Part shown: piece by piece, positions 53,505 to 53,893 of the stretch | Layout: each line of letters starts with the position of its first letter | Position numbering within the stretch: position 1 is the stretch's first letter | Virus genome (UHGV): UHGV-0307316 | Strand: one strand, 5' to 3' | Length of the DNA stretch: 64,000 nucleotides | Source: a virus | Notes under the pieces: model-generated | Told to the model about the DNA's origin: nothing | What the model saw: only the letters and a program-made list of their open reading frames with translations | Databases searched by the model: none | Translations under genes and position numbers: made by a program

Positions 53505-53893
53505 ACTTTAGTTGATTGTTAAGTTGTTTGTAAAGAACCCTCAACAGAAGACTCTTTAGAAACTTGGTAGATTTTTAACGTGGATACTACCATCCACCCA
53601 TACCGTGCCACACCACACCGGACCGTACCATGCCCAACCCTACTACACCAGACCTTATTAAAAGACCCTCTCCAAAGACCTTTTAAAAAGGTAAGTCTCA
53701 TTTTAATGTAGCTGAGACTAACTACCCATACATTACCGCACCATATTATACCCTACCCCACCATACTTCACTGCACCGAGCCACGCATTACATCACTTAA
53801 AAAACCTTTTCAAAGACTCTTAAGTGATGCTGGTGAGTACCCGTTGGTTTATGCTGCTCAGTATACTCACCAAATTTTCTATGTCAACAACTT

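Follow-up and report, generated by a model that had tools for sequence, protein, structure and literature searches.

A very probable type II VIPR locus in a Felix O1-like phage, with two predicted guide RNAs ahead of vipr

Organisation of the locus

The window, that is, the whole stretch of 64,000 nt analysed here, belongs to a Felix O1-like myovirus (Felixounavirus) with 97% identity to LF82P9 and LF82P1 over the query, and has a GC content of 39%. The region under study, 53505-53893, sits within a block of minus-strand genes running from DNA polymerase (56655-59384) through ligase (53894-55030) to DHFR and ThyA, and the minus strand is the coding strand of all the genes neighbouring it. Elsewhere in the window, 26 tRNA genes with small ORFs in between are clustered at 18833-24396 on the plus strand, and a homing-endonuclease gene with HNH and AP2 domains (56143-56658, minus strand) lies immediately next to the 3' end of the gene for DNA polymerase. 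Rfam at gathering thresholds reported only tRNAs across the window. The features of the locus from the ligase gene onwards are listed below, where vr5 to vr1 denote the predicted guide RNAs (vrRNAs) and the dinucleotides are those of the successive repeat units.

53860-53887, minus strand: sigma-70-type promoter, TTGACA-16-TATACT, 11/12 match to the consensus, directly after the ligase stop codon
53791-53871, minus strand: 5' leader with two hairpins, both in the minimum-free-energy fold
53792-53694, minus strand: vr5, whole (repeats and tail)
53728-53792, minus strand: vr5 repeat tract, 13 units of (D)GY-NN; guide AA GT TC GC GA AT GG AG AT AT GC AA (AT)
53694-53727, minus strand: vr5 3' tail, an H-type pseudoknot, GG-GTAG-TT-AGTCTCA-G-CTAC-ATTAAAA-TGAGACT
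53655-53693, minus strand: spacer between vrRNAs, folding as a hairpin TTAAAAG..CTTTTAA
53654-53566, minus strand: vr4, whole (repeats and tail)
53600-53654, minus strand: vr4 repeat tract, 11 GGY-NN units, at the position of SUSP1 vrRNA1; guide CT GT AG TG AT AC CC GT GT AC (AT)
53566-53599, minus strand: vr4 3' tail pseudoknot, GG-GTGG-AT-GGTAG-TAT-CCAC-GTTAAAAAT-CTACC
53490-53565, minus strand: vipr 5' UTR with GGAG ribosome-binding site, 100% identity in four aligned phages
52902-53489, minus strand: vipr, 195 aa, RAMP-like, match to PDB 36pp_D
52459-52899, minus strand: vap1 (vipr-accessory protein), 146 aa, 144/146 identical to the gene at the SUSP1 vap1 position
52425-52447, minus strand: intrinsic-terminator-like hairpin AGCCTC-TTCG-GAGGCT with T-run, after vap1
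52307-52395, minus strand: vr3 (repeats 52341-52395, tail 52307-52340); guide AC GC TA AA CT AG AG GA TT AA GC
52158-52246, minus strand: vr2 (repeats 52192-52246, tail 52158-52191); guide GT AA GC TA AT GC CA CA GA TC GC
52035-52118, minus strand: vr1 (repeats 52069-52118, tail 52035-52068); guide AA GC CT AA AT AT TG GA GT (AT)

The promoter is identical in SUSP1, bumzen and dune and is, judged by its sequence, a candidate start (53887-53860) for a vr5-vr4-vipr-vap1 transcript. The leader that follows contains one hairpin at 53832-53871 (GGTGAGTA..TACTCACC) and a second at 53791-53829 (CATCACTTAA..TTAAGTGATG) which abuts the first repeat unit; it is kept in SUSP1, there directly 5' of vrRNA1. 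The spacer at 53655-53693, of a type that recurs at 52119-52157 and 52396-52431, is presumed to be a processing or 5'-end-defining element. The start of vipr, placed at 53504 in the preliminary description, was corrected to the ATG at 53489 with its GGAG ribosome-binding site. No promoter was detected for the downstream array (vr3-vr1). A 13-bp AT-rich inverted repeat (AAATAAGCTATAA..TTATAGCTTATTT, 51988-52034) directly follows the vr1 tail, contains TTGACA and overlaps the promoter-like site of the next gene (52015-51987). The GenBank records of bumzen (L001:3306-3352) and dune (L002:3300-3351) annotate one array, as 'repeat_region' only, and list vipr and vap1 as hypothetical proteins.

Five-nucleotide repeats and their tails

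On the plus strand, CC recurs every 5 nt for 9-12 consecutive times at 52067-52118, 52190-52246, 52349-52395 and 53598-53639, while the longest such run among 200 shuffles of the window is 5. Positions 4-5 of the 42 perfect units are CC in 42/42 and position 3 is A in 32/42, with positions 1-2 free, and read on the minus strand the tracts form a strict 5-nt array, (GGY-NN)n. The period also holds in a fifth, distal tract at 53728-53792, where both Gs are present in only 7/13 units. The window thus contains five tracts of 10-13 units each, all GGYNN on the minus strand, which is the polarity of the flanking genes. In a set of 68 distinct arrays drawn from 21 phages, base composition is near-uniform at N4 and N5 and G1 is G in only 76%, a figure that takes in the arrays of SUSP1; G2 is G in 98% and Y3 is T in 89% and C in 11%, values that are partly circular because units had to have G2 and Y3 to pass the filter.

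All five tracts end in a 34-nt tail, and the tails, of three sequence types, share one H-type pseudoknot topology. Among the tails of the 21 phages and of satellites there are compensatory changes in both stems, the variants being GTAG:CTAC, GTGG:CCAC and AAGG:CCTT in stem 1 and AGTCTCA:TGAGACT, AATCGGA:TTCGATT (one G.U pair), GGTAG:CTACC, GGCAG:CTGCC and GTCG:CGAC in stem 2. Stem changes of this kind are seen over the 21 phages for the vr5 tail, the same module being present at 52158-52191, and for the vr4 type they consist of GTGG:CCAC vs AAGG:CCTT and of GGTAG:CTACC vs GGCAG:CTGCC vs GTCG:CGAC. We read the locus as encoding five vrRNAs, vr5 and vr4 upstream of vipr and vr3, vr2 and vr1 downstream within 51950-52458, with predicted mature lengths of 84-99 nt. 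Together the elements tile both intergenic regions, leaving at most a few unassigned bases between them.

This anatomy differs from that first proposed, in which two C/A-rich tracts flanked a box and a hairpin. The strings are all there on the plus strand (TTAAAAGACCCTCTCCAAAGACCTTTTAAAAAGG at 53658-53691, the hairpin AGTCTCA...TGAGACT at 53694-53719 and AACTACCCATAC from 53720), C+A does amount to 70-76% in both tracts, and the pair of box and hairpin does recur, at 52119-52191. The real unit, though, is a repeat tract with a 3' pseudoknot tail: the supposedly separate hairpin is stem 2 of that pseudoknot and belongs to the distal tract, vr5, while the box corresponds to the spacer separating the guide RNAs vr5 and vr4. 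Where three copies had been claimed, five tracts are counted in the window. The idea of a recurring functional module tied to the gene then given as 52902-53504 stands; its anatomy had been misread, as it is the minus strand that is functional. The preliminary description had neither the 5-nt period nor a connection with the downstream protein, and it named no function.

Two readings would dispense with a coding role for the repeats. The tracts could be neutral, microsatellite-like products of slippage without function, and 'repeat_region' is all that the GenBank records of related phages carry for them. Slippage would duplicate whole units, however, whereas here GGY is fixed and NN hypervariable, and the architecture persists down to 37% protein identity; we give this reading virtually no credence. 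Alternatively, the tracts could act through bulk composition or structure, as Rho-loading (rut) sites in an antisense transcript or, in the sense transcript, as G-quadruplexes of two tetrads. The plus strand, with 39-49% C and 7-15% G, and the GG every 5 nt on the minus strand are what such elements would show, but the position-3 pyrimidine, the conserved pseudoknot tails and the guide-target matches described below would be left unexplained. Moreover, G1 is often lost, and the distant (GGCNN)n arrays are C-rich, which would compete with quadruplex folding. It is thus highly improbable that the tracts work in this way.

vipr and vap1

The product of the gene next to the repeats is identical at 191/195 residues to PDB 36pp_D, 'SUSP1 Vipr protein' (E=1.5e-127), and a profile built from 34 vipr homologues matched one solved structure, again PDB 36pp (E=3.5e-81). 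The ungapped alignment differs only at positions 18, 119, 159 and 190, none of which is among the GGY and skip-base contacts H17, K33, E71, M72, R138, C173, T175, D177, W178 and R179 listed in the structural preprint (10.64898/2026.04.26.720927). The AF2 model of Vipr has a pLDDT of 93.8, and in Foldseek it is matched best by chains from CRISPR effector complexes of types III (Csm) and VII, Csm3 included. There was no Pfam or PADLOC match for vipr and no Pfam, PDB or PADLOC match for vap1; in PHROGs both fall in families of unknown function only. PADLOC at E<0.01 gave nothing for Vipr, vap1 or the next gene (51559-51942), and a Pfam scan of nine neighbouring proteins brought up no cas family.

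In VIPR (Viral Interference Programmable Repeat), which was reported recently, RNA guides with a non-contiguous code direct the recognition of DNA; the system is described in two bioRxiv preprints of April and June 2026 (10.64898/2026.04.26.720920 and 10.64898/2026.04.26.720927). According to these, Vipr is a small RAMP-like protein, and it polymerises on vrRNAs in which 9-16 YNNGG repeats precede a conserved pseudoknot tail; it holds the GGY flipped out, so that NN pairs with double-stranded DNA as xNN-xNN with one base skipped per unit, and binding of Vipr-vrRNA represses transcription, the guides of the SUSP1 clade being aimed at an E. coli satellite phage (10.64898/2026.04.26.720920, 10.64898/2026.04.26.720927). 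The definition of the SUSP1 system, with small-RNA sequencing, ribonucleoprotein and repression data, is in the first of them, where the vrRNAs are RNAs of ~100 nt that co-purify with Vipr in a complex repressing transcription of the target (10.64898/2026.04.26.720920). VIPR has also been proposed as an ancestor of the CRISPR RAMP proteins.

The identity of Vipr to 36pp (191/195), together with that of its neighbour to the gene at the SUSP1 vap1 position (144/146), makes the locus a type II VIPR in a Felixounavirus, and the region 53505-53893 is almost certainly its upstream half, consisting of two minus-strand vrRNAs ahead of vipr and vap1. The features of type II VIPR of the SUSP1 clade are present: Vipr, by definition a minimal RAMP with RRM core, G-loop and thumb, lies beside the repeats and has the contact residues, the vrRNA body and pseudoknot tail are in place, and vap1 is adjacent. 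As to targets, a match of 80% or more is seen for vr1, vr2, vr3 and vr5 in one satellite family, the score of vr4 is only 77%, and no self-target comes up to 80%.

Homologues of vipr that are 37-40% identical are also flanked by arrays of the same polarity, as (GGCNN)13-19 in a high-GC contig. Since arrays occur beside proteins of such low identity, arrays and protein have been co-inherited over a large evolutionary distance. The distant loci (L022:2440-4010 in IMG/VR contig 3300001533_000474, and also L021 and L023-L025) are on high-GC phage contigs, and all the gaps between genes around vipr are taken up by (GGCNN)13-19 arrays. Each of these arrays ends in GGTTTTTT directly 5' of the next start codon, and no pseudoknot tail of the SUSP1 type is visible.

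Comparison with known repeat systems

The position of the arrays, on both sides of a small conserved gene in a replication and nucleotide-metabolism module between ligase and DHFR/ThyA, recalls plasmid P1 (incC-repA-incA) and would fit tracts acting as DNA, as iteron-like origin arrays that flank an initiator gene. The iterons of an origin are direct repeats of 17-22 bp to which an initiator protein encoded alongside binds, and an AT-rich unwinding element lies close by; here the period is 5 nt, and the flanked protein is no initiator but an RNA-binding protein of the RAMP type, 98% identical to the solved Vipr. Read with a specific gapped rule, the variable positions match foreign DNA, G.U pairs in the tail stems (stem 2 of type A; stem 1 of one type B' variant) fit a minus-strand RNA, and the GC skew does not change sign at the site of the repeats. 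An origin function is thus very unlikely.

In the trp leader of Bacillus, TRAP binds 11 (G/U)AG triplets separated by 2-3-nt spacers, one triplet per subunit of the protein oligomer. The VIPR repeats resemble these sites in the 5-nt period formed by a triplet and a 2-nt spacer, in having 9-13 units and in the one triplet per subunit, and are unlike them in that the triplet is GGY, the spacers are informative and the bound protein is a helical RAMP filament rather than the TRAP ring. Binding by a TRAP-like ring was dropped as a candidate once the flanking protein had matched Vipr, no TRAP or other Pfam match being found among the neighbours scanned, and an array of primase sites was dropped on the same match, as were rut sites, G-quadruplexes and origin iterons. 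CRISPR arrays have direct repeats of ~25-40 nt with unique spacers between them and cas genes nearby; the unit here is 5 nt with two variable bases, and the nine neighbours scanned gave no cas-family Pfam match.

The likeness to the backbones of Class 1 CRISPR-Cas effectors (Cas7/Csm3 filaments) is at the level of the protein, with a RAMP/RRM fold and one protomer per fixed step of RNA. Thumb-induced base flipping, leading to periodically interrupted pairing, is another common element according to the preprints (10.64898/2026.04.26.720920, 10.64898/2026.04.26.720927). Unlike those systems, the VIPR locus is phage-borne and has no repeat-spacer array, cas1/cas2 or other cas genes, and its guide is non-contiguous: two nucleotides in each five are used, while in a crRNA only each sixth position stays unpaired.

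The closest relative is the SUSP1 locus (L038). The order of ligase, intergenic region, vipr, vap1 and intergenic region is the same, Vipr is 98% and vap1 99% identical, the promoter is identical and the leader and vipr 5' UTR are nearly so. The GGY-NN code, the pseudoknot tails, the three downstream vrRNAs and the targets in E. coli satellites under a 1-nt skip are shared as well. The differences are that SUSP1 is a Suspvirus and the phage here a Felixounavirus, that all the guide dinucleotides differ, and that SUSP1 has one upstream vrRNA, compared with two here and in bumzen and dune, because a unit of tract, type A tail and spacer has been inserted between the leader and the proximal vrRNA.

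Satellite islands and guide targets

When the locus was compared by BLAST with complete E. coli genomes, matches of ~88 bp to vr4 and its tail turned up in 100 chromosomes. They sit in a 9-12-kb island, and in the example of L026 the match is a solo vrRNA. The satellite-like island family is present in 545 of 5426 complete E. coli genomes (~10%). Its genes include a large serine recombinase, a tape-measure protein 37% identical to that of the phage, HNH and Dam, and its Dit-like baseplate protein is 68% identical to the phage protein at 38418-39215. One example is L027:10050-21800 (E. coli SCU-387, NZ_CP051688), a satellite in wrbA; the family also takes in L026, L028-L037 and L039-L044, with integration sites in wrbA, tonB-yciI, the DUF72 gene near yecD or mdtG, or next to dinB. 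The tape-measure or recombinase gene of the islands is often disrupted by IS elements. HNH genes occur in the satellites as they do in the phage, and AP2/ERF genes in some of them.

Every position on both strands of 18 satellite loci of E. coli was scored against the guides under skip rules 0-3, a natural target being defined as an NN match of at least 80% under the 1-nt-skip rule. Outliers appeared only with the 1-nt skip; rules 0, 2 and 3 gave a background of 14-18. The vr5 guide matches 23/26 positions (88%) in the satellite tape-measure gene at TAAAGTATCCGCTGAAATGGGAAGGATGATTGATAAAGC, or 23/24 without the conserved last unit, and the skipped base falls on codon position 3 (wobble). This site is present in 6 of the 18 loci and in metagenome contigs. 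The vr3 guide matches at 21/22 (95%) in a satellite leader, ~50 nt upstream of a 235-aa gene heading the tail-gene cluster, and vr1 at 18/20 (90%) in the same leader, ~65 nt upstream of the vr3 site. Each of the vr5, vr3 and vr1 scores exceeds those of all 200 shuffled guides. For vr2 there was no match in the 18 satellite loci, nor any match of its 10-unit pattern in viral contigs; one Citrobacter genome and 14 metagenome contigs do contain exact matches to that pattern, each time at one and the same site of a satellite serine-recombinase gene, where the full guide scores 20/22 (91%) with the skipped base at codon position 3. Up to three of the targets lie on a single contig.

Within the window no self-target reaches 80%, the best self score being at most 75%, and in the tape-measure gene of the phage itself the resemblance to the vr5 site is lost after three units. 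Taken over the 21 related phages, 57 of the 68 distinct guides reach at least 80% in the 18 satellite loci with a 1-nt skip, compared with 4-9 for other skips. The published 1-nt-skip rule is thereby independently reproduced on the dataset assembled here.

The distal guide RNA, vr5

The loss of G1 from much of vr5 raises the question of whether it is a decaying, non-functional relic, leaving vr4 as the sole working guide of the intergenic region. GG is kept in only 7/13 units, SUSP1 lacks a second upstream vrRNA, and perturbation of GGY abolished silencing, as stated in the first preprint, which also mentions that natural vrRNAs are often internally degenerate (10.64898/2026.04.26.720920). On the other side, G2 and Y3 are intact in 12/13 units, the tail is intact, and an identical vr5 is retained in at least five phage contigs. 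Given that G1 is only 76% G in natural arrays, and given the internal degeneracy mentioned in the preprint, the G1-poor vr5 may still be functional. Its near-perfect target, with 23/24 matches once the conserved last unit is left out and the skipped base at wobble positions, argues that it is functional now or was so recently. Overall, we consider decay of vr5 improbable.

vr4 and its possible origin

The best satellite score of vr4 is 17/22 (77%), in the tape-measure gene, with the seven 5' units perfect and mismatches after them. A score of 17/22 was also reached by 27 of 200 shuffled guides, and the skipped base is on codon position 1. Exact 10-unit searches of viral, genome and metagenome collections gave no target for vr4. 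Its first 34 nt are those of a vrRNA in contig L019 that scores 91% at this same tape-measure site, and its 3' block GGTGT-GGTGT-GGCAC (18 nt shared at the 3' end) is that of the related-phage contig L010. From these sequence identities we tentatively raise the possibility, itself rather doubtful, that vr4 is a natural chimera formed by in-register recombination between two different vrRNAs; or else it looks like a guide that targets a satellite variant outside the sample.

Were vr4 a chimera, the invariant GGY scaffold would be a built-in microhomology through which phages shuffle guide segments into new specificities without adaptation machinery. Such in-register shuffling would bear on how VIPR guides diversify, a subject not addressed in the accessible portions of the VIPR preprints.

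Proposed mode of action

Transcription from the promoter at 53887-53860 would yield vr5 and vr4, followed by vipr and vap1. Each vrRNA would consist of 11-13 (GGY-NN) pentamers followed by the 34-nt pseudoknot tail, presumably released by processing of a precursor. By analogy with SUSP1, one Vipr protomer would bind per GGY and flip it out, building a helical filament that presents the NN dinucleotides for pairing with double-stranded DNA as xNN-xNN, one target base being skipped per unit, and the target-bound complex would block transcription. Expression, ribonucleoprotein formation and repression in this phage are likewise extrapolated from that system.

The guides would point at an E. coli satellite whose tail genes are relatives of those of the phage itself, vr5 at the tape-measure gene, vr1 and vr3 at the leader of the tail cluster and vr2 at the integrase-type recombinase. 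The likely role is silencing of a satellite that parasitises this phage.

The system is already known, as its mechanism was worked out on the 98%-identical system of SUSP1, and knowledge of that mechanism is unchanged by the present analysis. Established here are the sequence anatomy, the protein identity, the tail covariation and the target matches. What sets this locus apart is a further vrRNA upstream of vipr, a set of guides of its own whose targets have been decoded, and vr4 with its apparently chimeric sequence. A near-identical copy of VIPR is thus present in another phage genus, and four of its five guides can be read from sequence alone as pointing to defined sites in one satellite family, so that the decoded guides give concrete phage-satellite pairs.

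The satellites themselves carry a solo vrRNA without a vipr gene. The one at L026:14940-15110 has its own promoter (TTGACG-17-TATAAT), 11 GGY-NN units, a pseudoknot tail of the helper type and an intrinsic terminator, and presumably such a solo vrRNA borrows the Vipr of the helper phage.
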